Positions 29,484-54,000 of a stretch of 64,000 nt of DNA are shown here, piece after piece. The stretch is from positions 1 to 64,000 of IMG/VR virus record IMGVR_UViG_3300009703_000012; one strand, written 5' to 3'. The position numbers and the translations under genes were made by a program. Source of the DNA: an uncultured virus (IMG/VR IMGVR_UViG_3300009703_000012) (Duplodnaviria; Heunggongvirae; Uroviricota; Caudoviricetes). Under the pieces are notes generated by a model, which was given only the letters and a program-made list of their open reading frames with translations, had not been told where the DNA came from and made no database searches. Every line of letters starts with the position of its first letter. Within the stretch, counting starts at the first letter, position 1.

Positions 29484-29484
29484 G

Positions 29485-35397: not shown

Positions 35398-35398
35398 T

Positions 35399-36893: not shown

Positions 36894-36909
36894 TATATTC
36901 CTCAATATA

Positions 36910-37893
36910 TTATTGTGCCATATCAAACTCTAGCATTTCACATGCGGCTTCAAAATTTTCATTTGTTTTATCGTCTGGACGACTTACATATGCTTCTCTA
37001 ACATATGCTAATAAATCTGTCAATTGAGATGTATTGAGATTTGAAATGGCAGTAGTGTTTTCGGTATCAATTTCATCAAATATTTTTGATGGTTCAGAAT
37101 ATCTCAAATGAACATTACTTAACTTGATAATATATATGAACTTAGAATAAGTAGAACTTATAAGTTTATTATGTAATGATATACAATTTGATGGCAACCA
37201 ACTTAAACTAGAAATTTGAGAATCATTTGGTCCAGCTATATTACCATCAGGAGTTTGAGCAGTTTCAGTTGTATACCAAGTTTTTCCTTTTTCATCAATT
37301 GCATTAATTAAAATTTTCATTGCGATTTCCCATCTCATATCACTATTAAACCATGATATATCTTTAGAATCCATATAGTCAAGAGGTAATACTGGTGCAT
37401 CATCTACAATAAATGGATCACCACTAACATCAGATCCTCTTTGATATGCAAAATATAAAACTCTATCAGTCCATTGATCTTCGGTTACTGCAGTTTTTAA
37501 ATAATATTCTTTATTTGTTTTTAATATATTTAAAATTTGATCATATTTATCGGATTCGCTTCCATTAGCAAGGTCAGTAATCTTGGAATCATTCTGAGAA
37601 GCCTCCCAATCAGGGCTACCTAAATCTTCATAAAATCCCAATTCTTCTCCTTTAGATCGTTCTTCATTCGTTGTTGATACATATGGTCTCTGACAAGCAA
37701 AGCCCGAAACTCGATCAAGCCATTCGTTTTCTGTAGTTCCATTTTCTAAATAATATTGTTTATTTAATTTTAATAAATCTAAAATTTGATCAAATTTATC
37801 AGGCTCACTTCCATTAGCAAGTGAAACAATTTCGTTATCACATTTTACAGTTTTCCATGTTGAATTTCCAGGTATATCATTGAATGCCATCAT
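36910..37893 (-). CDS. Hypothetical protein with internal duplicated domain
   Basis: Two copies of I..LANGSE.DK.DQIL..LK.NK.YYL....TE..W.DRV..FA.QR. Confidence 0.75.
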   Translation of the reverse strand: MMAFNDIPGNSTWKTVKCDNEIVSLANGSEPDKFDQILDLLKLNKQYYLENGTTENEWLDRVSGFACQRPYVSTTNEERSKGEELGFYEDLGSPDWEASQNDSKITDLANGSESDKYDQILNILKTNKEYYLKTAVTEDQWTDRVLYFAYQRGSDVSGDPFIVDDAPVLPLDYMDSKDISWFNSDMRWEIAMKILINAIDEKGKTWYTTETAQTPDGNIAGPNDSQISSLSWLPSNCISLHNKLISSTYSKFIYIIKLSNVHLRYSEPSKIFDEIDTENTTAISNLNTSQLTDLLAYVREAYVSRPDDKTNENFEAACEMLEFDMAQ

Positions 37894-38165
37894 TTGTCCG
37901 CTAAGTCGTTATATTTATCTCTCATTCTTTGCCAAAGAATTAAGCCCGTTGTTGAAAATTCTATATGATCTGCTAATAATTCCACATTTTTATATGAATC
38001 AAGAGAAACATCAAATCTTGATTTTGTAGAATCTAATAAATCAACTATACGAGAATATTTATTTGAAATATTACTTTCTTCTAATTTTTTTATCTTAGTA
38101 AGAACTGCAATAATATTAATAGAGGATAAATTAACTACTGTCATTTTCAAGTCCAGTTGGTTCAC
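37890..38165 (-). CDS. Hypothetical protein
   Basis: Packed ORF with ATGA overlap to the next gene; start uncertain. Confidence 0.6.
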   Translation of the reverse strand: MNQLDLKMTVVNLSSINIIAVLTKIKKLEESNISNKYSRIVDLLDSTKSRFDVSLDSYKNVELLADHIEFSTTGLILWQRMRDKYNDLADK

Positions 38166-38877
38166 CAGGCATAATAACAGGTTGACTAGGATCTAACGCA
38201 AATTGCTTGTTTTCTTCATTTAAAGGAGTTTCTTGCTGTACATCATTTTGAGGAGCTTGTTGCTGTGATTGTTGTGGTTTTGGTCTAGGAGAAACTCCAA
38301 TACCCAATTCTGTATCAATAAAGCCTGTAACCTCATCCATTGCCTCATCAAGAGATTTAGTATCTTGTTCTTTTCTTTCTTTATCAATAAATTTAATATA
38401 TTCTTTTGGATTTCCTTCTGCTTTAATCAAAGTCTCTTTACATTGATTATCACAGTATTTGTGAAATTCAGAAGCAAATTGACAATTACAAAGCATTCCT
38501 TTTACATATTCTATTTCATTACCATCTTTGTCTGTAGTTACAGGATTAGATTCATGATTATCCATCATTTCTAATTCCTTTAATGTTTCATCTACTAATC
38601 CCTGTACCTTATTTTCTTGCTCTATATCTTTCTGAAAATTTTGAGGAACGGTTCCTGGAGGAGAAGCCCCACTTACTCTTATTTGATTGTTCGCTCCACT
38701 AGACTCTCCTTTAGCATCTGCTGACAACATACCTAAACCCAAGTCAATTGCTTTTAATAATACATGACCTATATGGCGTGTTTTTTCATTATCTAATAAT
38801 GGAACTAATGCTTGTATTGCTTCATTAGCGTGTTTTTTAATCAATTCATGTTCTTCAGCCATAATATCTCCTAACAA
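38131..38877 (-). CDS. Hypothetical acidic protein with a CNCQF...C...C cluster
   Basis: 248 aa ORF; likely start at MAEEHE behind AGGAG. Confidence 0.7.
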   Translation of the reverse strand: MLGDIMAEEHELIKKHANEAIQALVPLLDNEKTRHIGHVLLKAIDLGLGMLSADAKGESSGANNQIRVSGASPPGTVPQNFQKDIEQENKVQGLVDETLKELEMMDNHESNPVTTDKDGNEIEYVKGMLCNCQFASEFHKYCDNQCKETLIKAEGNPKEYIKFIDKERKEQDTKSLDEAMDEVTGFIDTELGIGVSPRPKPQQSQQQAPQNDVQQETPLNEENKQFALDPSQPVIMPGEPTGLENDSS

Positions 38878-40247
38878 GAAAGACTTTTTCCGTCTTCCGC
38901 AAATTTTGTTTCTTGTAAATGTTCTGTTCCAGATCCTTGACCAAAGGTATCAACTATACCTAAACGATCAAACATTGTTTTTGGTAACCCAGCTTTAGGT
39001 AATTCTCTTTCTATTTCGGGATCTGCATCTGGAAAATCAAAGAACTCTTCTCCAACTCTTACATTCACATTTTGAATTCTAGCAAGACCTTGTTGACTAT
39101 AATAAAATCTATGATCTTTCTTTTCTCCACATGAATTACACATATCACAAAATAAACTACACACAGGATAATTTATTAAATTTCTTCTCCATTTTTCTCT
39201 AAGCCAATCAATTTGTTCTTTTAATAACCATTTAATTTTTGCTTCATCTTCTGGCGTTTCGCCTTCTGCACACTTATTATCTAAAGATGTTACAACTCTA
39301 TCTGGTCCATATGTCGTTGCTATATGAAACATATCTTTTGCAAAACACATTACATTTGATCTATGAATAGTATATCTACATCTCCACCGTATTTGATCTT
39401 CACGGGATTTGTCTTTATTGTATTCCATAATATTACCAAAACATTTTAATACATCAAGAGTTGAATCTTTCCCAGAATAATAAACTCTATCTTGACTTCC
39501 AACTCCATCAAAACTAATATCAAAAGAAACTCTTTGTTTTATTTCAGGATGCTCTTCTAAATATGCGGTCACTTTTTTAAAAAAAGCAGGCTTACTTAAT
39601 AATATACCATTTGATGTTATATTAAAATGACAATTATGTTTTGATTTATAAGCATAATCCATTAAAAATCTACAATTCTCCCATTCCATCAAAGGTTCAC
39701 CACCAAAAATACAATAAAGAGTTTGTTCATCAGGTCTATCTGATTCCATAATATTATCGATAAGATTGGCTATTAAAGGAGGTTCGGGTAAATGTTTAGG
39801 TCTTCCTTCTAAATGCTGATAGCAATAATTACAATCTAAATTACATTGACTTGTCATATAAAATAAATGAATTGCACCACCATGTGCAACTCTTGTTTTT
39901 TCATTTTCTCCATGTGTAAAATGTCTATCATAAATTTCACTAACAGTTGCTTCTTCAGTTTTTATTTTTCCCTGTTTTAAATCTTCAATACGATGTCGAT
40001 GTCTATCTGTTGAAACAGATTCAAAATTTTCTTTTACTACTTCATTTAATTTTCTATTCGAAATTTCTCTAATTTTTGAATCTGGATTTTTTGCAAGACT
40101 CTGTTCCTGAATAGTTGCCAATTCATGAATCTTATGGGTTGTATATGGTTTGCATATACTCTCTCCATCATTCAATCCTCTTTCATAATCAATAATATCA
40201 TCCAATTTACTAAATTCTGGACAAATTTTATCTGAACGGGATCTCAT
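38871..40247 (-). CDS. Radical SAM protein with N-terminal extension and short Cys cluster
   Basis: CNLDCNYC, FGGEP, SNG, ISFDG; C-terminal CSLFCDMCNSC. Confidence 0.9.
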   Translation of the reverse strand: MRSRSDKICPEFSKLDDIIDYERGLNDGESICKPYTTHKIHELATIQEQSLAKNPDSKIREISNRKLNEVVKENFESVSTDRHRHRIEDLKQGKIKTEEATVSEIYDRHFTHGENEKTRVAHGGAIHLFYMTSQCNLDCNYCYQHLEGRPKHLPEPPLIANLIDNIMESDRPDEQTLYCIFGGEPLMEWENCRFLMDYAYKSKHNCHFNITSNGILLSKPAFFKKVTAYLEEHPEIKQRVSFDISFDGVGSQDRVYYSGKDSTLDVLKCFGNIMEYNKDKSREDQIRWRCRYTIHRSNVMCFAKDMFHIATTYGPDRVVTSLDNKCAEGETPEDEAKIKWLLKEQIDWLREKWRRNLINYPVCSLFCDMCNSCGEKKDHRFYYSQQGLARIQNVNVRVGEEFFDFPDADPEIERELPKAGLPKTMFDRLGIVDTFGQGSGTEHLQETKFAEDGKSLSC

Positions 40248-40507
40248 TTTTTTCTTTCCTTATATTTTTTAATTATGTAGGACATATTTCTCATTAATCC
40301 TGCAAAATCTAAATTATATTTAAATAATGGCTCATGACCTATTCCCTCTTCTCCGGATTCATATTCGAAACTTCTCTTGAGTAAATTTTTATCTCTAGCT
40401 TGAACTTTATCAGGAGTTTCTTCATCTTGCAATTGTTTTATTATTGCATTGATATCACCTTCACGGGCCGCCTTTTCTGAAATTTCTTTTCGTTCATCTT
40501 TATTCAT
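40244..40507 (-). CDS. Hypothetical protein
   Basis: 87 aa, overlaps both neighbours (coupled). Confidence 0.7.
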   Translation of the reverse strand: MNKDERKEISEKAAREGDINAIIKQLQDEETPDKVQARDKNLLKRSFEYESGEEGIGHEPLFKYNLDFAGLMRNMSYIIKKYKERKK

Positions 40508-41175
40508 TATGGCTCCGTAATAAGTGGTGCGGTTGGAAATGTATCATACACTTTTTTATATCTATAGAACTTTTCTAACCACTCTTTTCTCTGTTCATCT
40601 GTTGCTCTATCTACAAGATGCCAAACATTTCTATTTGCAGATATCCATTCTTCAGCACTTATATTTTTACCTGCGACAATTTCAGGATCATCACCATAAA
40701 ATTGTTCAAATATTATACAACCTTGTTCAACCGGACTAAGTAATTCCCAACTTAAAGTGCCTTCTTCTTCGTATGTAGATTTATTTAAGTCCCCCGTTAA
40801 TTCTTTAGTATCTTTAAAATCTATTACATTATTATGTAAATTCTTTGGAAGACTTGACATATAATCATATCTCAAATCTTGTGAATATAGAATTTTATCT
40901 ATTACATTTCTAAACATTTTTCTATTTAATTGTTTTTTAGATACTATAATTACATATTCATTTTTTCTTATTGCTCCACCCTCTATAGTTCTATATAAAA
41001 CTTCATTCATCACATCAACATTAATTTTTTGATCATAATCTAAAACAACCATTGTAGTATCTTTATGTTGATATACTGTTAAATCTTTTTTATCTAATAA
41101 TTGACCAGGAATATATTTTGGTGGTCCATCTCCTTGGTTAACTCTTGGATCTATTACAGGTTTATCAAATATCAT
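40507..41175 (-). CDS. Hypothetical protein in radical SAM cluster
   Basis: 222 aa, ATGA overlap with upstream radical SAM gene. Confidence 0.75.
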   Translation of the reverse strand: MIFDKPVIDPRVNQGDGPPKYIPGQLLDKKDLTVYQHKDTTMVVLDYDQKINVDVMNEVLYRTIEGGAIRKNEYVIIVSKKQLNRKMFRNVIDKILYSQDLRYDYMSSLPKNLHNNVIDFKDTKELTGDLNKSTYEEEGTLSWELLSPVEQGCIIFEQFYGDDPEIVAGKNISAEEWISANRNVWHLVDRATDEQRKEWLEKFYRYKKVYDTFPTAPLITEP

Positions 41176-42398
41176 GCTGGTAATGATTCCACAAATGATT
41201 GATGTTCACTATGTTTCATCTGTGAAACTTCTAGCATAGAAAATAAATCTTTCTTTTCCTCTATTTCAAAAGGAGTATAAAAGTCTCCTCGACCCTTAAA
41301 TAATTTTCCAATATAATCTTGAAATGTTGGAAAATCTTTACACTCTTCAACAATTCTTATTGCTTCATCATAGTACATATGAAATAATTCACAAATAGAA
41401 TCTACAGGTGTATTTCCATTTCTTATCTGCGAATATGTACAACCTGCATTACATACTTTATATAGATCACACCCCTTACATTTATTATATGTTTTAGGAT
41501 TAAAAATATGTTGAAAATATGAAAAATTATATTCATCTCCTTTCATAGGTAAAACTTTTTTAGATCCAAATCTAGCACATGGATAAAATTCTCCTTCTAC
41601 TGACATAACTGAACCGCTCACTCCTGCAAAACATCCAAATGGTCTCTTGTTTTTAGTAATACCCAATAACATATCTTGTAATGGTAAATTAAACATTCCA
41701 TTAACTGCTAAAATTCCTTTAGAAAGATATTCTATTTGTTTATCTGCTAATCTTCTAACCTCTCTTCTAAAATGTTGTAAATCATCAATAGACCAAATAT
41801 CATCTCTTACAATAGAAAAATCTGGACAAGGAATTCCAAAATCAACTAAAAATTCAAAATTTTCTGTCATTGCATCAACATTAGCAGGAAAAATCATCAC
41901 TTTACATGTCTTACTATATTTTGTCAGTCTTCTAATCAAATGCTGTTTTTCATTATACATTTCAAACACACTTGAATATCCTTTATTTTCTCCCATATTT
42001 TTAATTACAGGTCTAGACTCATTTGAAGATATTCCATCAAAACTCCAACTTATTCCTACTCGATTTTCTTCTAACCAATCAGCAATCTCATCATTTATTA
42101 ATGTCATATTTGAAATAATTGATAATGCATGAAGTCTATCAGAATGTTCGCCTCCTCTTAATTTTTTTGTAGCGTGTTTAATTAATGGCATATTTAAAAG
42201 AGGTTCACCACCAAAAAATGTTAAATGAAATCTTCCTCTAGCATCAGCCTTTGATCTATCTACTAACTTTATAAATTCAGGCCATGCTTTATCAAACACT
42301 TCAGGTGTCATAAATTTGTCTTGATTTGCAACATAACAATATGGACAACCAAGATTACATTTTTCTGTTACTGACACTTCTAAATGATATTCAGGCAT
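41172..42398 (-). CDS. Radical SAM/SPASM-domain protein (peptide-maturase type)
   Basis: CNLGCPYC, FFGGEP, SFDG; SPASM CFAG...YPC...CKGC....CNAGC...C. Confidence 0.93.
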   Translation of the reverse strand: MPEYHLEVSVTEKCNLGCPYCYVANQDKFMTPEVFDKAWPEFIKLVDRSKADARGRFHLTFFGGEPLLNMPLIKHATKKLRGGEHSDRLHALSIISNMTLINDEIADWLEENRVGISWSFDGISSNESRPVIKNMGENKGYSSVFEMYNEKQHLIRRLTKYSKTCKVMIFPANVDAMTENFEFLVDFGIPCPDFSIVRDDIWSIDDLQHFRREVRRLADKQIEYLSKGILAVNGMFNLPLQDMLLGITKNKRPFGCFAGVSGSVMSVEGEFYPCARFGSKKVLPMKGDEYNFSYFQHIFNPKTYNKCKGCDLYKVCNAGCTYSQIRNGNTPVDSICELFHMYYDEAIRIVEECKDFPTFQDYIGKLFKGRGDFYTPFEIEEKKDLFSMLEVSQMKHSEHQSFVESLPA

Positions 42399-42606
42399 AT
42401 TGTAATTCCTTCCAAGGATCTCTACCAGATTGTTTTCTTTGTTGCTCAGTTAATTGATCTTTAAATTTCATATGAAAATTAATTTTAATAGGTTCTTCTT
42501 GACAATTACCAAATTCCACTCTATCTTCCCCACTATAAATTTTACTACAAGTTGTACATCCATCAGAAAGTGCTATTGGGCACTTTTTAGGATCACCTAT
42601 TATCAT
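42391..42606 (-). CDS. Small four-Cys protein
   Basis: CPIALSDGCTTC...C; coupled between two radical SAM genes. Confidence 0.65.
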   Translation of the reverse strand: MIIGDPKKCPIALSDGCTTCSKIYSGEDRVEFGNCQEEPIKINFHMKFKDQLTEQQRKQSGRDPWKELQYA

Positions 42607-43889
42607 AATTGATGTCCTGTTAATTGTCTATATGCTTTAGATACGGGTTCTAAGGTTTTCCATACAGTACATAATTGATGATTTGCAGTATGATCTTGCC
42701 ATTTTTCACCTACTGTTTTTTCTGGATATTTTGTATCTGATGCATCAAAAGATCCCGCTGGACATTTTAAACAAAAATCTGCAGTACAACTATTACATGC
42801 TAAGGTACCATCTGTTCTAAAATCATTTAAATATGATTGATATGTCGCAGTTGTTTCATCAACAAGTTTTTGTAAAGTATTAGATTTAATATCTCCTCTA
42901 TGATGATCTTCCCTTTGTCGATACATACAACCATGACATGGGTAAGTTTTACCATCAAGATCCAATGATAGATAATTTATTCCTGCTGAACAATTTTGTT
43001 TTTCTCTCTTAAACCATCTAAAAGATTGTGCTAATTCTATTTTATTCTCCATGCTATATTTGACAATTTTCATTAAATTCACTCTTAAATCTTTCATGTG
43101 TTGTGCAAATTCTTCTTCTGGAACTGCGCCATCAGGTCTATCTGGATCCACACTATGGGTATCAGGAGTAGGTCCATAATGTTCTCCTCGATCATGATGC
43201 CACTTCCAAACTTCAAAAAGATATTTAAAATTTCGTGATGAGATAGTAGGTTTCATTCCTACAGAAAATCCATCTTTTTTCAACTCATCATATATTTTAA
43301 GAACAGATGCCGATAATTTTTTACTTTCGCCTTTTTTTGTTCTTCTTTCTTTTGTATTAATAGGCTCACCATCAAAAGAAATTTGTATATGTAATCTATC
43401 TTGCCAAGGATAATCAATTCTCTTACCAAGCATATCTCTAATACCTTTAAGTTGTTTTTTATATTTTTTCAGATAAGTACCATTTGTATAATACATGAAA
43501 TTAACTTTTTTATCATCTTTCAATAATTTCATACAAGTACTTGTAAAATGAAAATTGGCAAAAGGTTCTCCTCCCCACCAATAAACATTTACATCTTTAT
43601 ATTTGTTATAATCTAAGGTTCTTACTGCTTCAACTACTTGCACAGGAGTCATTTCTGTGGGCTCTTGAAAAGCAGAAGAAAGACCACAAGATTCTCCTTC
43701 TGAACAGTAAGTACAAGCAAGATTACATTCACTTGTTACGTTTACATCGAAATTAAAACTCTGCATTGGATTAAAGCCAGGCATTCCTCCATTATTCTTC
43801 TGTTGCTGTTGTGGAGGAGACCACCCTGTACTTGGTGGTGTATACATTTGATTTGGAGCTACAGTTTCTAAGTTGTGTGATTGAGTCAT
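42603..43889 (-). CDS. Radical SAM/SPASM-domain protein
   Basis: CNLACTYC, WGGEP, TNG, ISFDG; CSAG...YPCHGC...CNSC....CLKC...C. Confidence 0.93.
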   Translation of the reverse strand: MTQSHNLETVAPNQMYTPPSTGWSPPQQQQKNNGGMPGFNPMQSFNFDVNVTSECNLACTYCSEGESCGLSSAFQEPTEMTPVQVVEAVRTLDYNKYKDVNVYWWGGEPFANFHFTSTCMKLLKDDKKVNFMYYTNGTYLKKYKKQLKGIRDMLGKRIDYPWQDRLHIQISFDGEPINTKERRTKKGESKKLSASVLKIYDELKKDGFSVGMKPTISSRNFKYLFEVWKWHHDRGEHYGPTPDTHSVDPDRPDGAVPEEEFAQHMKDLRVNLMKIVKYSMENKIELAQSFRWFKREKQNCSAGINYLSLDLDGKTYPCHGCMYRQREDHHRGDIKSNTLQKLVDETTATYQSYLNDFRTDGTLACNSCTADFCLKCPAGSFDASDTKYPEKTVGEKWQDHTANHQLCTVWKTLEPVSKAYRQLTGHQL

Positions 43890-43898
43890 ATTATTTCT

Positions 43899-44492
43899 CT
43901 ATTTTGGACCGAAGTTACAGTTACACGGACAGAAGTTACAATTACAAGGGCAAAAGTTACAGTTGCAAGGACAGAAATTACAGTTACAAGGACAGAAATT
44001 ACAGTTACATGGACAAAAATTGCAATTACATGGGCAAAAGTTACAATTACACGGACAAAAATTACAGTTACAAGGACAAAAGTCACAATTACATGGGCAG
44101 AAATCACAGTTACAAGGACAAAAGTCACAATTACATGGACAGAAATTACAATTGCATACGCATAAAACTTTCCATTCATCAAGATTAGATTCTAACGTTT
44201 CAATTTGAGATGCTAAAATTAGATCACCTGCAGAAACAGTTGGTTGAATTGGTACACCTGTTGTTGGTGTAGTTCCTCCTAAATTATATTCAACTGCGAG
44301 TTGTATTTCATCAAATATTGATGCGGCGATTGGATCGGCATAAGGATCCCAAGTTTCATTAGTTATGGATCTTCTAGTCAATTCATCATTGATAGAAGTT
44401 CTCATTGTATTAATATCAGACTGCTCAACTAAATCATTTAATTGAGAAGCAAGATTAGTCAAATTTGTAGGACATGCTAAGGGTCCAGCCAT
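43899..44492 (-). CDS. Cys-rich repeat protein, candidate radical SAM substrate
   Basis: ~110 aa acidic N-terminal part followed by 12 heptads CxCNC(N/D)F; directly upstream of the radical SAM genes. Confidence 0.85.
   Translation of the reverse strand: MAGPLACPTNLTNLASQLNDLVEQSDINTMRTSINDELTRRSITNETWDPYADPIAASIFDEIQLAVEYNLGGTTPTTGVPIQPTVSAGDLILASQIETLESNLDEWKVLCVCNCNFCPCNCDFCPCNCDFCPCNCDFCPCNCNFCPCNCNFCPCNCNFCPCNCNFCPCNCNFCPCNCNFCPCNCNFCPCNCNFGPK
43911..44162 (-). repeat. Coding tandem repeat, 12 x 21 bp
   Basis: 1x CVCNCNF, 3x CPCNCDF, 8x CPCNCNF; all 12 DNA units differ from each other. Confidence 0.95.
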
Positions 44493-46011: not shown

Positions 46012-49000
46012 TCATACTTTTACTTCTACAAAATCACCATTACTATTAGTTAATGCTATTCCAATTAAATCATGTTTGTGTGGTTCATATTCATATTTAG
46101 TTATAACTTTTCCAGTTCCATCTTTATAAGCTATAATAAAATCTCCTTTATTACATCCTCCCTCAATCTTAACTAATATTCTTCCTTTCAAACAAATAAA
46201 AAGCATAAATTCATTTTCTCTTTGTATCATACCATCATTCATTCTCAATCCAGGTTTATCTGAAACAACACCAGCATAAGGCATGTCAACTTGATATAAT
46301 GTGACCTCTTTTGTTCCTCCTACTGCTAAAACAGTTCCTGGTTCATATATTTTATCTGATTCATATCTCTCGGCCAAGTCAGACCAGTTTGCTGAAGTTG
46401 CTCTTCCGTTAAATGTAACTGCATACATGTCATTATAAACCATTGTTGCTGAACCAACATCACTCGTATTATTTGCAGAAGGAAGAATATCTACTGTAGT
46501 TAAAGTCCCCCCTACTGTAGTTGCTCCATCAAGTCCAGATGTTCCATGTACTTTAAGATTAGCTAATCCAGTTGCACCACTTGAAGAGTAAATTGGAAAA
46601 TTCATGGCTATCTGAGTTGGAGTTGTAACATCATCTACAAGAAATCCAGAATACGCTCCAAGAGTAGATGATGTTGCATAATATTGAATTTGACCAGCAC
46701 CTCCTGCTGGAAGACTTCCAGAAACACCAGAAGTCCCTGCAGATCCAGCACTTCCTGCAGATCCAGATGAAGCATAAGTTAGTCCAGAAGTACCAGATGT
46801 TCCAGAAGATCCTTCTCCGTGTGTGAGACCAGCATATCCTGCTTGAGTAGTGGGAAAAATTATTTTTACAGTATTAGAATCAATATATTGAGTAGATTCT
46901 GGTATAATAACATTATAATTACCATCAACAACTTCGATATTTAAAGGTCTAGTATTTAAACCATGAGTTATCAACCAGACAAGTGCGGCTGAAGATTGAG
47001 TATGAATGTAAGCACCGCCAGCATTTCCATCAGTTCCATCTGTTCCAGATGTTCCAGCACTCCCTGCACTTCCTGCAGAACCAGAACTTCCTGCAGAACC
47101 AGACGATCCAGCACTTCCTGCAGAGCCAGCACTTCCTGTACTTCCTGCAGATCCAGATGATCCAGCACTTCCTGCAGAGCCAGCAGAACCAGAACTTCCT
47201 GCAGAACCAGACGATCCAGCAGTTCCAGTTTCTCCAGAAGAACCCGATGAACCAGATGAAGCATAAGTTAAACCAGACGATCCTGCAGAGCCAGCAGAAC
47301 CAGAACTTCCTGCAGAACCAGACGATCCAGCACTTCCAGCACTTCCAGCAGAGCCAGCACTCCCTGCAGAACCAGCACTTCCAGCAGAACCAGACGATCC
47401 AGATGAACCCGCAGAGCCAGTAGTTCCTGCAGTTCCAGAAGAACCAGATGAAGCATAAGTCAATCCAGATGAACCAGAAGTTCCAGACGATCCTTCACCA
47501 AAAGTAAGTGCCGCATATCCTGCTTGAGTAGTGGGAAAAATAACTTTTACAGTATTAGAATCAATAAATTGAATTGATTCTGGAATAATTATATTAAAAT
47601 TAGTATCAGTAATTTCTACATTTAGAGGTCTAATATTTAAAGCGTGACTTATTAACCAAACAAGTGCAGGTGTAGATTGAGTATGAAGAAAAGATCCGCC
47701 ATCACGACCAGATGATCCAGCACTTCCTGCAGAGCCAGCACTTCCAGCACTTCCAGCAGTACCTGCACTTCCTGCACTTCCTGCAGAACCCGCACTTCCT
47801 GCAGAGCCAGATGAGCCAGCACTTCCAGAACTTCCTGCAGAGCCAGCGGATCCAGCACTTCCTGCAGAGCCAGCAGATCCAGCACTTCCAGCAGAACCCG
47901 CAGAGCCAGCAGATCCAGAACTACCAGACGATCCAGAAGTTCCTGAGGTACCAACATCACCAGTTCTTGCAACTGTAAAAAGTATATCAGCATCATCAGC
48001 AAAAAATGCGTCTTGTCCACCAATCTTTGTAACTTCTATTTCTTGATAATCTCCTGCATTCGTAAGATCACCAACTGTAAACATTACATATTGACCAGCA
48101 TCAAATAGTGCGGCCAATCTTATATGACCTTTAATTGCTGAAGATGATGCATCAACTTGATCTAGAAAACTTTCAGTATCGGCACCATTTGAATCTGTTT
48201 CACTTATAGAAAGTCTATTAACTGTAGAGAAATCAGTTGGTGCAGATCCAGTATCAATACCTACTTCAAGTCTTCCAGAACCAGGATCACTTGCTGATCC
48301 TGTAAATGAAGTATCTTCAAAAACATATTGAAAAGATGCACCACCAAAGTTTCCATCTTGTCCAGACGATCCAGAAGTTCCTGAAGATCCAGAAGTTCCT
48401 GAAGATCCAGAAGTTCCAGACGATCCTTCACCAAAAGTTATTGCGGCAAATCCTGCTTGAGCAATGGGAAAAATTATTTTTACAGTATTAGAATCAACAT
48501 ATTGAGTGGATTCTGGTACAATAACATTATAATTAGTATCAACAACTTCTATATTTACAGGTCGAGTTCCTAAATTATAAGGTATTAACCAAACAATTGC
48601 AGGTGTAGATTGTGTATGAATGTAAGATCCACCATCACGACCGGATGATCCAGCACTCCCTGCAGAGCCAGCGGATCCAGCACTTCCTGTAGAGCCAGCA
48701 CTTCCTGCACTTCCAGCACTTCCTGAAGAACCAGCAGAACCAGATGAACCAGCACTTCCAGCACTTCCTGCAGAGCCAGCGGATCCAGCAGAACCAGCAC
48801 TTCCCGCAGAGCCAGATGATCCTGCAGAACCAGCACTTCCTGAAGAACCAGATGTTCCAGAAGTTCCAGTAGTTCCTGACGAACCAGATGATCCTGCAGA
48901 ACCAGCACTTCCCGCAGAGCCAGATGAACCAGATGAAGCATAAGTGTATCCAGAAGAGCCCGCAGAACCAGCAGAGCCAGCACTTCCTGCAGAGCCAGCA

Positions 49001-50742
49001 CTTCCTGCACTTCCAGCACTTCCAGCACTTCCTGCAGAGCCAGATGAACCAGCACTTCCTGCAGAGCCAGCGGATCCAGATGAGCCAGCGGAACCAGCAG
49101 ATCCAGCACTTCCTGAAGAACCAGCACTCCCAGATGATCCAGAAGTACCAGATGATCCAGATGAAGCATAAGTCAATCCAGACGAACCAGATGATCCAGA
49201 CGATCCTTCACCAAAAGTTACCGCCGCATATCCTGCTTGAGTAGTAGGAAATACTATTTTTACATTATTTGAATCAATATATTGAATAGATTCTGGATAA
49301 ATTACATTATAATTATCATCAACAACTTCTATATTTACAGGCCTAGTATTTAAATTATAAGGTATAAACCAGACAAGTGAAGCTGAAGATTGAGTATGAA
49401 TATAAGATCCGCCATCTTGTCCAGAAGATCCAGCACTTCCTGCAGAACCCGCAGAGCCAGCACTTCCTGCAGATCCAGATGAACCAGCAGATCCAGCACT
49501 ACCTGCAGTTCCGTGTGTTCCTCCTGCCCCCGAAGAACCAGCACTTCCTGCAGAGCCAGCACTTCCAGCAGAACCAGCACTTCCAGCACTACCCGCACTT
49601 CCCGCAGAGCCAGCGGATCCAGATGAGCCAGCACTTCCCGCAGAGCCAGATGATCCTGCAGAACCAGCACTTCCTGAAGAACCAGATGTTCCAGAAGTTC
49701 CAGCATCACCAGTTCTTGCAAATGTAACAATTATGTCTTCATCATCATCAAATAATGCAGTTTGTCCTCCTATTTTCGAAACTTCTATTTCTTGAAAACC
49801 CGAATCATTAGTAACATCCGAGATAGTAAACATTACATACGTACTTGTATCAAATTTTTTCGATATTCTTACATGTCCTTTAATTGCGGATGTTGCACCA
49901 TCAACTTGATCTAGAAAACTTTCAGTTGATGTACCATTTACATCAGCTTCACTCATAGAAATTCTATCAACTGTAGAAAAATCTGTAGGTGCAGATCCAG
50001 TATCAATTCCTACTACAAGTTTACCAGAACCTGGATCACTTGCGGCGCCTGTAAATGTTGTATTTTCAAAATCATATTCAAAAGATTGACCACCAAAATT
50101 TCCATCTTGTCCAGATGTTCCTGCAGTTCCAGAAGTTCCAGTAGTTCCAGAAGTTCCTGCAGAACCAGAAGAACCAGCACTCCCAGAACTTCCTGCACTT
50201 CCCGCAGAGCCAGATGATCCTGCAGAGCCAGCACTTCCTGTAGAACCAGTAGATCCAGATGATCCAGCAGTTCCACCCATTCCCGAAGAACCAGAAGTTC
50301 CTGCAGAACCAGAAGTTCCAGAAGAACCCTGTCCATAAGTTATGGCGGCATATCCTGCTTGTGAAGAAGTAAATACTATTTTTACATTATTTCCATCAAT
50401 AAATTGAATAGATTCTGGTATAATAACATTATAATTATCATCAACAACTTCTATATTTACTGGTCTAGTTCCTAAACCATGAGTTATCAACCAGACAAGT
50501 GAAGCTGAAGATTGAGTATGAACAAAAGAACTACCATCTTGTCCAGAAGATCCAGCACTCCCTGCAGAACCCGCAGAGCCAGAGCTTCCAGATGAAGCAT
50601 ATGTCAATCCAGACGATCCTGCAGAACCAGCAGAACCTGCAGATCCAGCACTCCCCGCAGATCCAGCAGAGCCAGCGGAACCAGAAGTTGTTTTCTCTTT
50701 TAAACTATAATCTGCGTATTCGCCTTTAAGAAATAGTGCCAT
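46012..50742 (-). CDS. Giant Gly-Ser-Ala triplet fibre protein with repeated globular modules and C-terminal chaperone-like domain
   Basis: GSA/GSS/GTS runs; 5 copies of module A (HTQS...W.I...L..RP), 2 copies of module B (DGNFGG...ARTGD); C-terminal SDLAERY..D..Y..G.V motif. Confidence 0.85.
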
Positions 50743-50745
50743 TAA

Positions 50746-51066
50746 TTAAATACTCGTATAGCTAATTACTACTGAAACTTTATCTACTGTATCAGCGATT
50801 GCTTGAATAGTATCGCTTGCTCCCATTAAAATTCTTTCACTTCCAAAAGCAAAAGTATCAGTTGCATTTATTGTTAATTCTTTCATTATCATGTGTTCAT
50901 CTCCCAATGTGTCACCATTAGGAACAATCCAACATGTTACATCAATAGCAGAAGAATCTGTATTACAAAAAAATATTGTTGTAACTGCAGACTCTCCTGA
51001 TGAAGTATAAACTGTAGTGGCTGTTGCACTATTTGTATTTGCTATTAAATTTGTTTCGATAGACAT
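50746..51066 (-). CDS. Small beta-rich probable virion protein
   Basis: TTVYT...TTIFFCN pattern; sits between the two fibre genes. Confidence 0.7.
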   Translation of the reverse strand: MSIETNLIANTNSATATTVYTSSGESAVTTIFFCNTDSSAIDVTCWIVPNGDTLGDEHMIMKELTINATDTFAFGSERILMGASDTIQAIADTVDKVSVVISYTSI

Positions 51067-51067
51067 A

Positions 51068-54000
51068 TTAGAATATTAATCCATAAGTTATTGCTTTTTT
51101 GCGTGAAACCAATTCATCGGGATCATCAGTTCCTTGTTTAAAATATATTCCTGTTCCTCCTGCTCCCGAAGAACTTGAAAAAACTGCAGATTGACCTGCA
51201 GTCAAAGTAGGTTTATTTCCTGAAACATCATCTCTTTGAGACATTTGAATATAACCAGTTGTTCCACTTGTACCCACCAAAAAAGTTTTACCAGTTACAT
51301 TTAATTCATTTCCATCAAATGTTAAATTTGTTTCTCCATCACCAGATTCAGTATCAGCATTAATAGAAATTAAACGATCTTCTGCAGAATTATTTAGATT
51401 TAAAAATCCAGAGGATCCTGCAGTTCCTGCAGAGCCAGACGATCCAGCACTTCCCGAACTTCCTGCACTTCCTGAAGAACCAGTAGTTCCAGAAGTTCCT
51501 GCAGAGCCAGATGATCCAGCACTTCCTGCAGAACCAGCAGAAGCAGAAGTTCCTGCAGTTCCTGAAGTTCCAGCAGTTCCAGATGTTCCAGCATCACCAG
51601 TTCTTGCAAATGTAACAACTATATCTTCATCATCGGAAAATAATGCAGTTTGTCCTCCGATCTTTGAAACTTCTATTTCTTGAAAATCTGTATTATTAGT
51701 AACATCTGAAATTGTAAATATTACATATTGATCACTATTAAATCTTTTATGAATTCTTACATGACCTTTAATTGCAGATGTTGCACCATCAACTTGATCT
51801 AGAAAACTCTCAGTTGATGTACCATTTACATCTAATTCGCTTATAGAAATTCTGTTAACTGTAGAGAAATCAGTTGGTGCAGATCCAGTATCAATACCTA
51901 CTTCAAGTTTACCAGAACCTGGATCGCTTGATGCACCTGTAAATGTTGTATTTTCAAAATCATATTCAAAAGATGCTCCTCCAAAATTACCATCTAGTCC
52001 AGAAGTTCCTGCAGTTCCAGAAGTTCCTGCGGATCCAGCACTTCCTGCAGAACCAGAAGAGCCAGCACTTCCTGCACTTCCAGCACTTCCAGCACTTCCT
52101 GCAGAGCCAGATGAACCAGCACTTCCTGCAGAGCCAGCACTTCCCGAACTTCCTGCACTTCCAGCAGAACCAGCAGATCCAGCACTTCCAGCAGAGCCAG
52201 CACTTCCTGCAGAACCAGACGATCCAGAAGAAGCATAAGTTATTCCAGATGATCCTGCAGTTCCAGAAGTACCAGAAGTTGATTCTCCAAACGTTACTGT
52301 AGCCCATCCTGCTATTGCAGTAGGAAATACTATTTTTATATTATTTGAATCCGTAAATTGAATAGATTCTGGATAAATTACATTATAATCATCATCACAA
52401 ACTTGAACATTTATAACTCTTTTTGTTAAAGTATGATTTATTAACCAAACAGATGCCGCTGAAGATTGTTCATGAGTAAAAGAACCCCCATCACGACCAG
52501 ACGATCCTGCAGTTCCAGAACTTCCTGCACTTCCTGCAGAGCCAGCACTTCCAGAAGAAGCATAAGTTAATCCAGATGATCCAGATGTTCCAGATGTTCC
52601 AGCATCACCAGTTCTTGCAAATGTAACAACTATGTCTTCATCATTAGCAAAAAATGCATTTTCACCACCAACTTTTGTAACTTCTATTTCTTGAAAATCT
52701 GTATTATTAGTAACATAATGAATGGTAAACATTGCATATTGGTCAGAATATGTTTTTCGATGAATTCTTACATGACCTTTAATTGCAGATGTTGCTGTTT
52801 GAACTTGACTTAAAAAACTTTCAGTTGATGTTCCATTTACATCAGTTTCGCTTATAGAAATTCTGTTAACTGTAGAAAAATCAGTAGGTGTAGAACCTCC
52901 CTCTAATAAAAGATCCGACTCTGTTTCTAAAATAAAACTTCCAGTATCATCCTCTAAAGTAATAGATCCATTATCGAATCCTACGTTAAGTTTACCCGCA
53001 CCAGGATCACTTGTAGCTCCTACAAATGCTGTATTTGAAAAATCATATTCAAAAGCCGCTCCTCCAAAAACACCATCACGACCAGATGATCCAGCACTTC
53101 CCGAACTTCCTGTAGAGCCAGCACTTCCAGCACTTCCTGCAGAGCCAGATGAACCAGCAGATCCAGATGATCCTGCAGAGCCAGATGAACCAGCAGATCC
53201 AGATGATCCTGCAGAGCCAGCACTTCCAGCAGAGCCAGCACTTCCTGCAGAGCCAGATGAACCAGAAGATCCAGAAGTACCAGAAGATCCAGAGCTTCCT
53301 GCAGATCCAGATGAACCAGCACTCCCTGCAGAACCAGCGGAACCAGCAGATCCAGCACTTCCCGAACTTCCTGCAGAGCCAGACGATCCAGCACTTCCCG
53401 AACTTCCTGCACTTCCAGCAGAACCAGCAGATCCAGCACTTCCAGCAGAGCCAGCACTTCCTGCAGAACCAGACGATCCAGAAGAAGCATAAGTCCATCC
53501 AGATGATCCAGCACTACCTGCACTTCCTGCAGAACCAGACGATCCAGACGATCCTGCAGAACCAGCAGAACCAGCAGATCCTGCAGAACCAGACGATCCA
53601 GAAGTTCCAGAAGAACCAGAAGTTCCAGAAGAGCCTTCTCCAAAAGTTAATGCACACCAACCCGCTACTGCAGATGTAAAAACTAATTTAACAGTACGTG
53701 AGTCTGTAAATCTAATCGATTCTGGATAAATTACATCATAATCAGTATTTACAACTGTAGTATTTAAAGGTCTAACACCTAGATGATGATTTATTAACCA
53801 AACGGATGCCGCTGACTCTTGATTATGAATATAAGAACCACCATCTTGTCCAGAAGATCCAGCACTACCTGCAGAACCTGCAGAACCAGTACTTCCAGCA
53901 GAGCCAGAAGTTCCAGTAGTTCCAGAAGTTCCATGACTTCCTGTTCCTCCAGATGATCCAGATGAAGCAAATGTCAATCCAGACGATCCAGCAGATCCAG

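Follow-up and report, generated by a model that had tools for sequence, protein, structure and literature searches.

A conserved phage cassette of three radical SAM enzymes and a cysteine-heptad protein that is probably cross-linked as part of the virus particle

Introduction

The genome of a marine T4-like phage carries, side by side, a gene for a cysteine-heptad protein and three radical SAM (rSAM) genes. This locus raises the question of what the enzymes act on, and of whether the heptad protein is a peptide for release or a part of the virus particle. The window, that is, the whole stretch of DNA analysed, comprises 64,000 nucleotides of the uncultured virus record IMGVR_UViG_3300009703_000012. 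An initial annotation viewed the locus as a RiPP-like module whose repeats may be stapled by the adjoining enzymes. The comparisons below support a conserved unit with kinship to thioether maturases; they do not support an RRE-like domain, for which it proposed a check, and the 4-Cys mini-protein that it listed is not conserved. From these sequence comparisons, we give about an even chance to the reading that the three neighbouring enzymes act on the 197-aa protein, and that this is a structural protein of fibre type rather than a leader-core peptide made for release.

Results

The ORF map agrees with the earlier description of a 197-aa protein with 12 heptads tightly coupled to three rSAM genes: neighbouring cassette genes (38871-44492, minus strand) overlap or are separated by at most 10 nt (Table 1). 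The cassette was said to follow two fibre genes, and it does, here and in relatives; however, three small ORFs, conserved in the sister contig L003, intervene before the repeat gene. The fibre genes lie directly downstream of the portal gene, co-directional with the cassette, and their products match PHROG tail-fibre families and Pfam Collagen (3.2e-80 and 8.8e-87). Neither a leader protease nor an exporter was found in the cassette or its relatives by Pfam, PHROG and neighbourhood comparison.

Table 1. Features of the cassette and its surroundings in the window
Feature	Position	Strand	Basis or remark
Two giant fibre proteins with collagen repeats (1576 and 1679 aa), separated by a 106-aa ORF	46012..56107	-	PHROG, Pfam
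Three small ORFs, 134, 194 and 180 aa	44500..45994 (44500-44904, 44871-45455, 45452-45994)	-	between fibre genes and repeat gene
Cys-heptad protein, 197 aa	43899..44492	-	ORF; proposed substrate
Heptad array, residues 111-194, 12 x C-[VP]-C-N-C-[ND]-F	43911..44162	-	period 21 nt
rSAM1, radical SAM/SPASM, 428 aa	42603..43889	-	Pfam, NCBIfam, alignment A4
4-Cys protein, 71 aa	42391..42606	-	ORF
rSAM2, radical SAM/SPASM, 408 aa	41172..42398	-	alignment A1, NCBIfam, PDB profile match
222-aa protein	40507..41175	-	ORF; sister lineage only
87-aa accessory protein, fourth conserved core gene	40244..40507	-	HMM, alignment A3
rSAM3, radical SAM, 458 aa	38871..40247	-	alignment A5, Pfam
248-aa protein	38131..38877	-	co-conserved in sister lineage
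Two ORFs, 91 and 327 aa, behind cassette	36910..38165	-	kept in sister lineage

The 12 heptads are perfect (one CVCNCNF, three CPCNCDF and eight CPCNCNF) and are followed by a C-terminal GPK. The earlier count of 36 heptad cysteines was confirmed, with one more cysteine at residue 7; the stretch GDLILASQIETL, previously placed at the N-terminus, occupies residues 88-99, immediately ahead of the repeats. Tandem Repeats Finder reported a period of 21, 11.2 copies and 81% matches. Among 462 codon pairs from the 12 units, 195 differ synonymously and 38 non-synonymously; given this synonymous excess, the array is held at the protein level, with selection on its amino-acid sequence, and is no fresh product of slippage. 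The protein matches phrog_26958 (1.7e-19) and belongs to a family of 512 clusters at 50% identity in a profile search, with no assigned function. Alignment A2 of this family shows a conserved Cys core and a variable N-domain. AlphaFold2 (AF2) predicted a three-helix N-domain (residues 24-40, 57-71 and 94-109; pLDDT ~80), for which searches of PDB and BFVD gave no significant fold match.

A DNA pattern for three consecutive heptads retrieved 55 loci on 53 viral contigs, and enzyme homologues were sought within 10 kb (each at E<1e-10). All three enzymes were present on 38 of the 53 contigs, two on 2, one on 5 and none on 8, 5 of which are cut by the contig end; the enzyme gene closest to the repeat gene lay at a median distance of 391 nt. 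The same pattern also fits unrelated (CD)n proteins at seven bacterial loci, none with an rSAM neighbour, which form a natural negative control for it. In the reverse survey, an rSAM2 profile retrieved 77 viral loci: adjacent Cys units accompany 25 of the 31 rSAM2 homologues at 34% identity or more, versus 3 of the 46 below 34%. The two surveys share contigs, many of them closely related; the 53 contigs hold 39 distinct repeat proteins, 26 of which occur with the enzyme trio.

The linkage of repeat gene and enzymes is kept through at least five gene orders. Exceptions are L088, which has genes like rSAM2 and rSAM1 but lacks the repeat gene, and L069 and L159, with a repeat gene and no rSAM in the sequence covered. 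In Campylobacter Firehammervirus phages, the cassette genes are dispersed yet co-occur: the repeat DNA matches 13 records, and strong rSAM2 matches (e-57 to e-59) were found in 15 of 50,697 phage records, all Campylobacter phages (CPt10_0221 matches rSAM2 at 1.35e-67 and CPt10_1931 matches rSAM1 at 6e-29). The pairing is far from chance. In many phage lineages the repeat-protein family is accompanied by all three enzyme families and by the 87-aa accessory protein, and sequence comparison supports the repeat protein and the three rSAM enzymes as a conserved functional unit.

At many loci, the trio belongs to a bigger island that also includes additional rSAM genes, a glycosyltransferase and sugar enzymes, and some of these enzymes may therefore act elsewhere. 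It is nevertheless very improbable that the linkage is synteny only, with the enzymes tailoring a small molecule or glycan (products of neighbouring ACP/type III PKS/desaturase genes, or sugars) beside an unrelated fibre part. Such targets would suit the ACP, SDR, type III PKS, PPTase and desaturase genes downstream of the window cassette and the L017-type cassettes amid glycosyltransferase, UDP-sugar dehydrogenase and further rSAM genes. However, these flanking metabolic genes vary by lineage whereas the trio and repeat gene remain, the closest relatives of all three enzymes are peptide or protein maturases, and close rSAM2 homologues mostly have the repeat neighbour, as counted above.

Peptidase_S74 is the self-cleaving chaperone of trimeric phage fibres. 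This chaperone, or its cleavage-site stub, stands at the C-terminal end of about half of the repeat-protein family: the Pfam domain begins immediately after the repeats in relatives, an SDxxLK site lies beyond the last heptad in 78 of the best 150 family representatives, and in stub-type relatives a separate ORF of ~90 aa provides the remainder of the domain. This suggests that the repeat protein is of the trimeric virion-fibre type rather than a leader-core peptide. The window's 197-aa protein carries neither domain nor stub (ORF, Pfam), and its fibre character rests on the homology of its N-domain and repeat to S74-bearing relatives.

The lack of a fibre chaperone in the window protein would also suit a true RiPP-like product, in which the ~110-aa N-domain serves as a large leader and the stapled repeat, no part of the virion, either leaves the cell at lysis or works within the host, for example as an inhibitor, metal chelator or anti-competitor agent. 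The layout is indeed leader-then-core, with E37, R40 and R41 invariant in the N-domain, alongside the Cys columns of the C-terminal core; tandem paralogues stand beside one enzyme set in L029 and L038, as in multi-precursor RiPP clusters; rSAM2 matches nif11- and SCIFF-type maturases in NCBIfam; and a Clostridium isolate genome (L157) encodes a short form of 142 aa with an adjoining rSAM. We consider such a product rather improbable, since protease and exporter are absent, S74 or its stub terminates so many family members, the heptads sit mid-protein in forms of 520-830 aa, the repeat gene lies within a fibre operon, and a conserved core with a variable N-domain is the reverse of most RiPP families. 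A virion appendage, as the initial annotation suggested, fits better with these sequence features and with the fibre-gene setting than a released peptide does.

Pfam Radical_SAM was matched by all three enzymes (1.5e-13, 2.5e-13 and 1.5e-07), and Pfam SPASM by rSAM1 only and marginally (21.4 bits against a cut-off of 21.5). The earlier assignment of rSAM1 and rSAM2 as SPASM enzymes is nevertheless upheld by the family alignments, in which the full 7-Cys set is invariant or nearly so. The cysteines of rSAM1 are C55/C59/C62 (CxxxCxxC) and C300, C318, C365, C368, C373, C376 and C407 (SPASM); those of rSAM2 are C14/C18/C21 and C256, C274, C307, C310, C316, C320 and C336. Besides C135/C139/C142, rSAM3 has only a short C-terminal auxiliary motif, C-x3-C-x2-C-x2-C, with C363, C370 and C373 invariant; its N-terminal extension of ~125 aa occurs in some lineages only. 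No recognition (RRE) domain was recognisable in rSAM1 or rSAM2. The NCBIfam alignments of rSAM3 touch profile positions 13-44 of HxsB, SCIFF and CrpC-type families, upstream of the cluster motif.

The best NCBIfam and PDB matches of the three enzymes are thioether formers (PapB, the SCIFF maturase/CteB and the QhpD family), which supports a closest relationship to thioether-forming SPASM maturases on sequence grounds. The PapB ranthipeptide maturase is the top NCBIfam match of all three, at 142.5 (rSAM2; cut-off 340), 77.5 and 53.6 bits; these scores fall far under every curated cut-off, and the reaction type is thus not readable from family membership. PDB 5wgg is matched by the rSAM2 family profile at 6.5e-35, aligned from about chain residue 101, and by rSAM3 at 4.2e-19.

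The same enzyme-substrate pair might carry out chemistry other than Cys-to-Asn/Asp thioethers: a sactionine (S to C-alpha), a Cys-to-aromatic link or an aromatic-to-C-beta cyclophane via the Phe, Tyr or His at position 7, Cys oxidation to formylglycine, or epimerisation. Position 7 is mostly aromatic (Y 210, F 126 and H 30 of 388), weaker NCBIfam matches include cyclophane families (YhhB, XyeB, GrrM), anaerobic sulfatase maturase and the HxsB/HxsC pair, further PDB matches are the anaerobic sulfatase-maturating enzyme 4k36 (5.9e-16) and, for rSAM3, epimerase YydG, and with three different enzymes there may well be several types of reaction. We regard this as unlikely, however: besides the kinship of the top matches, Cys and Asn/Asp are invariant in the family heptad tally, whereas position 7 accepts N, Q, K and R, and the scattered C-x-C-[ND]-x-[ND] units of the Campylobacter-phage protein retain Cys and Asn/Asp and drop the aromatic residue.

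The T4 gp37 tip has His-x-His iron sites, with which a metal-laced fibre shaft may be compared. The Cys array could likewise bind metal or iron-sulfur clusters and never undergo covalent cross-linking, as such a shaft or as a scaffold or electron conduit for the phages' many rSAM enzymes; the rSAM genes would then serve a different substrate or supply the array with clusters. With C-x-C spacing and 36 Cys in 84 residues, it is metallothionein-like by composition, and alternating Cys would line one face of a beta-strand; AF2 gave short strands of period 7, at low confidence (repeat pLDDT 44-52). Carrier phages are also rich in Fe-S enzymes: L017-type loci are islands of at least 8 rSAM-like ORFs, and CP220 and CPt10 encode 11-12 rSAM proteins according to PMC2853527. 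Yet metal binding alone does not account for the retention of precisely these three families, among all rSAM enzymes, beside the repeat gene when gene order changes; the invariant Asn/Asp are atypical as metal ligands, the protein matched no metallothionein or ferredoxin family of Pfam or NCBIfam, and rSAM neighbours are lacking beside the unrelated Cys-rich (CD)n proteins. A purely metal-binding module is accordingly quite unlikely.

The 87-aa protein lies between rSAM2 and rSAM3 in most cassettes and has homologues in 32 of the 53 contigs; an HMM of the corresponding ORFs in other cassettes found it at 9.2e-10, and H58, L61, Y64 and D67 are invariant in alignment A3. An RRE-like domain had been suspected in 40244-41175, but the AF2 model of this protein is all-helical (pLDDT 67) and unlike an RRE, and the neighbouring 222-aa protein, of no known family, is restricted to this and the sister lineage. 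The 71-aa 4-Cys protein, listed in the initial annotation as part of the module, proved lineage-specific: its sole relative is a 42%-identical ORF in L003, it matches nothing in Pfam, NCBIfam or PHROG, and it does not align to the rSAM1 extensions of other lineages. The 248-aa protein is 49% identical to its counterpart in L006, with no match to any family in the profile searches.

Discussion

As the pairing of enzymes and repeat is kept in many phages, it is probable that the virus staples a protein of its own particle. We infer the chemistry, the acceptor residues and the virion location of the 197-aa protein as follows. On the model of CteB, PapB, QhpD and CrpC, the thiolate of a heptad Cys would bind the open iron site of auxiliary cluster 1, and the 5'-deoxyadenosyl radical would abstract hydrogen from a carbon in the side chain of an acceptor close by. 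Asn/Asp at positions 4 and 6 of the heptad would be the best candidates for this role and make up two C-x-x-N/D pairs in every unit; the resulting link would be an S-C thioether of the ranthionine type, with 2 Da lost each time. Three enzymes for three Cys registers per heptad suggest a division of labour in which each enzyme serves one register. The product may be a rod with dense stapling that forms the mature C-terminal end of a small virion appendage; its gene lies with those for the tail fibres and is probably transcribed together with them.

Protein substrates of such enzymes have experimental precedents in QhpD/QhpC and CrpC/CrpA (2026); we know of none in a virus, and our literature search found no paper describing this cassette in phages. 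The thioether-forming maturase CteB is the best solved relative of the window enzymes, and both CteB and PapB have the same seven auxiliary-cluster cysteines as rSAM1 and rSAM2. According to an excerpt of its description, CteB (PDB 5wgg) holds two auxiliary clusters ligated by 3 and 4 Cys, and the substrate binds the open site (PMC10177961). CrpC has been shown to install ranthionine links in the repeat protein CrpA, whose C-x-x-Q/D motif, as given in the excerpted text of that study (PMC13692751), parallels the C-x-x-N/D of the window heptads.

Genome setting and organization of the cassette

The window belongs to a T4-like myophage with a G+C content of about 30%, whose contig is 76,873 bp long. 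PHROGs matches were found for the clamp loader, sliding clamp, late sigma factor, major head protein, scaffold, prohead protease, portal, tail tube, sheath and terminase; the closest portal proteins among 50,697 phage records, about 52% identical, are those of cyanophages and of a Methylophilales phage. All genes of the window except one lie on the minus strand, and the sole clear plus-strand gene encodes an HNH homing-type endonuclease. In two giant fibre proteins, long Gly-Ser-Ala collagen-type triplet runs alternate with repeated globular modules, and three small ORFs separate these collagen-repeat fibre genes from the gene of the 197-aa repeat protein. The latter starts 8 nt after the stop of the preceding gene and heads a cassette that also contains the radical SAM genes rSAM1, rSAM2 and rSAM3. 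The genes of this cassette overlap or are spaced by no more than 10 nt, which bears out the tight coupling of a Cys-repeat protein with three radical SAM genes described in the initial annotation. Three further ORFs of no known family lie behind rSAM3. The T4 late-promoter motif TATAAATA gave 11 matches against 11.95 expected; because the count is so close to expectation, the timing of transcription is not readable from it.

Directly behind the cassette lies a lipid/polyketide-like gene set that is unusual for a phage. It includes genes for an acyl carrier protein (ACP), a TauD-type dioxygenase, an SDR, a type III PKS, a phosphopantetheinyl transferase and a 2OG-Fe oxygenase, together with five fatty-acid-desaturase paralogues. 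The ACP, SDR and PKS genes are also retained in the sister contigs L028 and L090.

Coordinates of the cassette and of neighbouring features in the window
Feature	Length (aa)	Position	Strand	Remark
HNH homing-type endonuclease		60945-61367	+	between sheath and terminase genes
Collagen-repeat fibre protein	1679	51068-56107	-	downstream of portal gene
Collagen-repeat fibre protein	1576	46012-50742	-	between portal gene and cassette
Repeat protein	197	43899-44492	-	C-terminal Cys array
P-C-P-x-N-L-T motif of repeat protein		44450-44492	-	residues 1-14
rSAM1	428	42603-43889	-	
4-Cys protein	71	42391-42606	-	
rSAM2	408	41172-42398	-	
222-aa protein	222	40507-41175	-	
87-aa protein	87	40244-40507	-	
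rSAM3	458	38871-40247	-	
Lipid/polyketide-like set		27860-36926	-	directly behind cassette
ACP		36510-36926	-	in this set
Type III PKS		33755-34783	-	in this set
Phosphopantetheinyl transferase		33330-33758	-	in this set
Fatty-acid desaturase		31875-32633	-	paralogue
Fatty-acid desaturase		31115-31909	-	paralogue
Fatty-acid desaturase		30348-31118	-	paralogue
Fatty-acid desaturase		29485-30351	-	paralogue
Fatty-acid desaturase		27860-28654	-	paralogue

Co-inheritance of the repeat gene and the radical SAM genes

The pairing of the repeat gene with the three enzymes was surveyed in both directions. A DNA pattern of three consecutive heptads gave 55 loci on 53 viral contigs, and every ORF within 10 kb was scored against the radical SAM proteins of the window and of a Campylobacter phage. 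Homologues of all three enzymes (each E < 1e-10) were found on 38 of the 53 contigs, of two on 2, of one on 5 and of none on 8. Five of these 8 contigs are cut by the contig end and two have a weakly similar adjoining radical SAM gene, which leaves L069 as the only one with nothing. Measured from the repeat gene, the closest enzyme gene is a median 391 nt away. Many of the contigs are closely related, and the forward set holds 39 distinct repeat proteins, and 26 of them are accompanied by the trio.

For the reverse survey, a scan with the single rSAM2 protein gave the sister lineage only, and a profile was used instead. Across 2.9 million contigs it confirmed at least 358 relatives and at least 77 viral loci. 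Among the matches listed, Cys units adjoin the rSAM2 homologue at 25 of the 31 loci that are at least 34% identical to the window enzyme and at 3 of the 46 loci below 34% identity, in a survey that shares contigs with the forward one and is not independent of it. Gene neighbourhoods were one of the checks proposed by the initial annotation, which took homologues routinely lacking a Cys-repeat neighbour as one sign that its reading was wrong; among the 31 close homologues listed, such a neighbour is the rule (25/31). Three exceptions are a contig edge (L090), a short contig (L110) and a partial match (L141), and in a fourth, the Campylobacter phage (L098), about 33 kb separate the repeat gene from the enzyme gene. 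In the fifth, a 71-aa N-terminal remnant of the repeat gene (L075:12662-13084) stands between the usual neighbours with the heptads missing, through either a deletion or a collapse of the repeat in assembly. L088 is the one genuine case with no repeat neighbour. The remnant in L075 retains the E-R-V-R-R-G motif.

The order of the genes varies among the cassettes. The substrate gene comes first in the window type; other cassettes have the orders rSAM1-rSAM2-small gene-rSAM3-small gene-substrate, rSAM2-x-rSAM3-rSAM1-substrate, and rSAM1-x-rSAM3-rSAM2-substrate, and in a further type four ORFs separate the substrate gene from the trio behind it. As a negative control, acidic (CD)n proteins of Clostridia match the DNA pattern by chance at seven bacterial loci, and none of these has a radical SAM neighbour. 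Synteny alone is an alternative, in which the enzymes would act on small molecules. The repeat gene and the trio are co-inherited, and they very probably stand in an enzyme-substrate relation.

Several other loci came to light in the surveys. The seven bacterial loci (L148, L149, L151-L154 and L158, all MAG contigs) encode Clostridia proteins of about 150-170 aa in which an acidic (C-D)n run is followed by paired C-x-x-C motifs, a family unrelated to the phage repeat protein. In a Clostridium isolate genome (L157:9980-11723; identical to viral contig L051), the gene of a 434-aa radical SAM protein, only weakly similar to the phage enzymes, directly adjoins one for a 142-aa protein whose C-terminal end is formed by a few C-x-C-N-C-[ND]-x units; this pair may be a cellular or prophage cousin. 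At L017:3982-19199, and similarly in L021, L036, L058, L060, L066 and L068, the trio of these freshwater-type relatives lies inside an island with at least five extra radical SAM genes, a GT2 glycosyltransferase, a UDP-glucose/GDP-mannose dehydrogenase-like gene and a 2OG oxygenase. This surplus is comparable to the 11-12 radical SAM genes of the Campylobacter phages CP220 and CPt10.

The Cys-heptad array and its protein family

Residues 111-194 of the repeat protein consist of 12 exact heptads, C-[VP]-C-N-C-[ND]-F, so that the 12 Cys heptads with 36 Cys claimed for this 197-aa protein are present; one extra Cys is found at residue 7. Tandem Repeats Finder reports 11.2 copies with a period of 21 and 81% matches. 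The differing codon pairs between heptad copies comprise 195 synonymous and 38 non-synonymous ones (of 462 pairs). Because the copies differ mostly at synonymous sites, selection maintains the peptide sequence of the array. The plus-strand ORFs over the array are a side effect of its repetitive sequence.

Each of the 12 heptads contains both C1-x-x-N4 and C3-x-x-[ND]6. In 388 heptads from 64 proteins, collected by a method that fixed the Cys and partly the N/D positions, position 2 is T or P, position 4 is N (69%) or D (25%), position 6 is N (87%) or D (12%), and position 7 is Y (54%), F (32%) or H (8%). The number of heptads per protein ranges from 3 to 23 and varies even among close relatives of the window protein, which has 12; the sister contig L003/L042 has 14, and the family maximum is 23. 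The window instance is notable for its long perfect array, the lack of a chaperone tail, the substrate-first order and an extended rSAM3. An array this rich in Cys might instead bind metal or Fe-S, with no covalent links. Searches of Pfam and NCBIfam with the repeat protein gave no match, metallothionein families included.

A profile of 31 members of the repeat-protein family matched 512 clusters at 50% identity (E ≤ 0.001), 303 of them at 1e-10 and 66 at 1e-30, and the matches cover the N-terminal domain as well as the repeats. The look-alikes in the ESM Atlas are viral clusters. In the family alignment, E37, R40 and R41 of the N-terminal domain are invariant. An AF2 model predicts this domain of about 110 aa as three helices (pLDDT ~80), the repeat part not being confident, and Foldseek of the model against PDB and BFVD gave no match at E ≤ 0.001. 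phrog_26958, which represents proteins of the Campylobacter-phage type, matches the repeat protein (E 1.7e-19; residues 88-158 against profile positions 268-338 of 534) over the pre-repeat helix and the repeats only. The N-terminal P-C-P-x-N-L-T motif is conserved in the window lineage and in related forms; it contains an extra C-x-x-N unit and also fits an N-x-T sequon.

C-terminal tails and fibre character

The most telling feature of the family is what lies behind the repeats in relatives. Trimeric phage fibres and spikes have a self-cleaving intramolecular chaperone, Peptidase_S74. In relatives of the repeat protein, the Pfam domain of this name begins one residue past the last heptad (L021, 2.8e-08; L036, 7.8e-07), and many others end after the first S74 strand (S-D-x-R-L-K-x-x-I-x-Y-hydrophobic). 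At loci of the latter, stub type, an independent ORF of about 90 aa covers the rest of S74 (2e-08 to 7e-05 against full-length forms), so that the chaperone is in effect split. Examples are L029:12118-12384, L052:10212-10487, L053:10225-10506 and others; in L029, one such ORF lies behind four tandem repeat-protein paralogues. Among the best 150 family representatives, 19 have a full S74-like tail, 59 have a stub, 51 end no more than 12 residues past the last heptad, like the window protein, and 21 have other tails. This census among the best 150 indicates that the mature C-terminus is generally the Cys array. An intein/Hint-like block after the heptads in the representatives P0040 and P0153 was considered as a possible second self-cleaving tail and set aside, Pfam finding no family there.

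The relatives are thus of the fibre type: like S74 fibres and spikes of the endosialidase type, they carry S74, in full or as the first strand, which bears the Ser/Lys cleavage motif. The window protein differs in that it has no Pfam family, no S74 domain and no stub, and ends in GPK, and its putative fibre character rests on homology. Most of the surveyed cassettes lie directly behind fibre genes. We know of no S74 fibre for which Cys heptads or radical SAM partners have been reported, and none with either was found in the literature searched.

A released RiPP-like product is another explanation of radical SAM genes beside a Cys-rich protein. The features of a classical RiPP cluster were not found: in place of a short leader-core precursor there is an N-terminal domain of about 110 aa that is predicted to be folded, leader protease and exporter are lacking, and protease, transporter and exporter families are absent among the cassette genes and their conserved neighbours.

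The three radical SAM enzymes and the small proteins

Pfam Radical_SAM matches rSAM1, rSAM2 and rSAM3. The top NCBIfam match of each is PapB (NF047865), with 142.5 bits for rSAM2, 77.5 for rSAM1 and 53.6 for rSAM3, all under the family cut-off of 340 bits. Further NCBIfam matches are to QhpD-type, nif11, SCIFF, HxsB/HxsC and CXXX-repeat enzymes and to the CrpC family TIGR04463. Other chemistry by the trio on the same substrate is an alternative to thioether formation. In rSAM2, C14/C18/C21 and the SPASM residues C256, C274, C307, C310, C316, C320 and C336 are invariant among the phage homologues, and rSAM1 has the same pattern; in both alignments (A1 for rSAM2, A4 for rSAM1) the seven SPASM Cys are invariant or at least 90% conserved, which gives the 3+4 set of ligands. 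In rSAM3, the radical SAM motif is followed only by a short C-x3-C-x2-C-x2-C at the end. The best solved relative is 5wgg/5why (profile of rSAM2, 6.5e-35; of rSAM3, 4.2e-19). According to the available text of PMC10177961, 5wgg is CteB, whose auxiliary clusters 1 and 2 have three and four Cys ligands, respectively.

rSAM2 aligns with CteB cysteine for cysteine from about chain residue 100-102 onward, and its cluster motif begins after just 13 residues. Because the alignment starts only at about residue 102 of CteB, rSAM2 has no N-terminal recognition domain; in the alignments, an N-terminal RRE is absent from the core forms of both rSAM2 and rSAM1. In rSAM3, the NCBIfam alignments of the 125-aa extension run into profile positions 13-44, where CteB and CrpC have their RRE.

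The 87-aa protein is hit at 9.2e-10 by a profile of the ORFs between rSAM2 and rSAM3 in other cassettes; it has homologues in 32 of the 53 contigs, with H58, L61, Y64 and D67 invariant. Its AF2 model is all-helical (pLDDT 67, pTM 0.27) and unlike an RRE, contrary to the suggestion that structure prediction might reveal an RRE-like domain in 40244..41175. The 71-, 222-, 248-, 91- and 327-aa proteins are retained only in the sister lineage (L006-L008, 33-51% identity), and the sister copy of the 71-aa protein is in L003 only (42% identity). Two ideas on this 4-Cys protein, that it has split off from rSAM1 or that it is a partner kept across cassettes, were rejected, as it aligns to nothing in the rSAM1 alignment and is lineage-restricted. 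Since the remaining proteins are confined to the sister lineage, the core consists of the repeat protein, rSAM1, rSAM2, the 87-aa protein and rSAM3.

Proposed function and its significance

By analogy with PapB, CteB and QhpD, the heptad Cys would be joined to side-chain carbons, the thiolate binding auxiliary cluster 1 and a 5'-deoxyadenosyl radical abstracting hydrogen. The likeliest acceptors would be the Asn/Asp three residues on (C1 to N4, C3 to N/D6), a spacing that parallels the C-x-x-Q/D of the archaeal protein CrpA as given in the accessible part of PMC13692751. For the related thioether formers PapB and Tte1186, the available text of PMC10177961 has the thiol or selenol of the substrate bound to an iron that is assigned by the data to cluster 1, where a coordination site is open. 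As a conjecture, each enzyme might serve one Cys register, three enzymes matching three registers. Candidates for recognition in the absence of an RRE are the E/RR helix of the N-terminal domain, the 87-aa protein and the N-terminal extension of rSAM3.

Whether the trio places thioether staples in a virion appendage, the full statement of the proposal, we judge to be evenly balanced. A bolder form seems improbable to us: a ladder of up to 36 thioether staples along the 84-residue array, one register per enzyme and some links between trimer chains, that forms a laced, protease- and heat-proof nanorod at the appendage tip. It would be the first case of a virion protein cross-linked by radical enzymes, would rank with the most densely cross-linked proteins in nature, and would account for the surplus of radical SAM genes in Campylobacter phages and aquatic T4-like phages, which has been a puzzle for long.

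To our knowledge, covalent post-translational cross-linking of virions is known mainly as the autocatalytic isopeptide chainmail of HK97. If stapling is true, these phages finish a part of their own particle with the radical chemistry of peptide antibiotics. A function would then be at hand for several hundred clusters of function-less phage proteins, and for the radical SAM genes of Campylobacter phages under study for biocontrol, which have been on record since 2010 with no explanation (PMC2853527, in the portion available). For the study of register specificity, a perfect heptad in 12 copies together with three dedicated enzymes makes an unusually clean system, and it may be a source of genetically encoded, very stable rods.

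That radical SAM/SPASM enzymes mature Cys-rich peptides is well known, and there are precedents for protein substrates (QhpC, CrpA); protein-sized SPASM substrates were experimentally shown just recently (CrpC/CrpA, 2026). The viral setting, the S74-type fibre as putative substrate, the strict heptad, the three enzymes with no fused RREs and the breadth of the family are new. In the literature searched, which is that outside subscription-only journals, no description of the phage system was found, and the heptad motif strings had no match there.

Comparison with known systems

Firehammervirus phages of Campylobacter (CP220, CPt10, CP21, IBB_35), which are cultivable, share the heptad, the helix motif and homologues of rSAM1 and rSAM2 with the window. 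They differ in that the enzyme genes are dispersed, one 2.3 kb and one about 33 kb from the repeat gene. The Campylobacter-phage relatives of the repeat protein were identified by blastn, in which the repeat DNA matched 13 Firehammervirus records, and by PHROGs; tblastn with the repeat protein against 50,697 phage records gave no match, probably through the low-complexity filter. CPt10_1891 (534 aa) has the same pre-repeat helix motif, 6-7 mid-protein heptads of the form C-T-C-[ND]-C-N-Y and, beyond these, scattered C-x-C-[ND]-x-[ND] units. With rSAM2, tblastn against the same 50,697 records gave strong matches (34% identity, e-57 to e-59) only in 15 Campylobacter phage records; CPt10_0221 pairs with rSAM2 (1.35e-67) and CPt10_1931 with rSAM1 (6e-29). 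The CP220/CPt10 genome paper (PMC2853527) describes a 21-bp repeat inside CPT_0180/CPt10_1891 and 11-12 radical SAM proteins, proposed as helpers of host metabolism. Its available text draws no connection between the two, and CPT_0180 is not among the CP220 gel bands named in the available part of the legend.

CteB/CteA (SCIFF) and PapB/PapA (freyrasin) are the best solved and NCBIfam relatives, with the same seven auxiliary-cluster Cys as rSAM1 and rSAM2. Their precursors are short secreted peptides, each with one enzyme that has an N-terminal RRE; PapB makes repeated Cys-to-Asp links in tandem CX3D motifs (PMC10177961, available text). The window enzymes, in contrast, score far under the cut-offs and face a C-x-x-N/D heptad array on a folded protein. 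The CXXX-repeat system (TIGR04115 maturase, PF27846 target), defined bioinformatically, likewise pairs a Cys-repeat target with a radical SAM/SPASM enzyme, and PF27846 occurs in 19% of the members of one look-alike ESM-Atlas cluster. Its repeat has a period of 4 whereas that of the window has a period of 7, and rSAM2 scores 58.7 bits against the TIGR04115 cut-off of 350.

In QhpD/QhpC, a SPASM enzyme puts Cys-Asp/Glu thioethers into a subunit of a larger assembly, as stated in the accessible part of PMC13692751. The QhpD family TIGR03906 is the second NCBIfam match of rSAM2 (1.5e-27; 96 bits against a cut-off of 453). This system differs in that it is bacterial, concerns a quinohemoprotein amine dehydrogenase subunit and makes three links with one RRE-bearing enzyme.

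In CrpC/CrpA of Methanococcus voltae, a SPASM radical SAM enzyme acts on a Cys-rich protein and not on a short peptide (Dieter et al. 2026, PMC13692751, available text, which has no mention of phages). CrpA resembles the window protein in its N-terminal domain followed by a C-terminal tandem Cys repeat with C-x-x-Q/D; the repeat is 10-fold with 17 residues, and ranthionine thioethers made by CrpC were shown in it by mass spectrometry (same source). The window has what characterizes CrpC-type substrates, a neighbour with an N-terminal domain and a C-terminal Cys repeat holding a C-x-x-acceptor motif. Its rSAM2 (43.0 bits) and rSAM3 (25.8 bits) stay below the 525-bit cut-off of TIGR04463. Whereas CrpC/CrpA is archaeal and cellular, with a single RRE-bearing enzyme and a 17-residue repeat, the window combines three enzymes and a 7-residue repeat in the context of a viral fibre.
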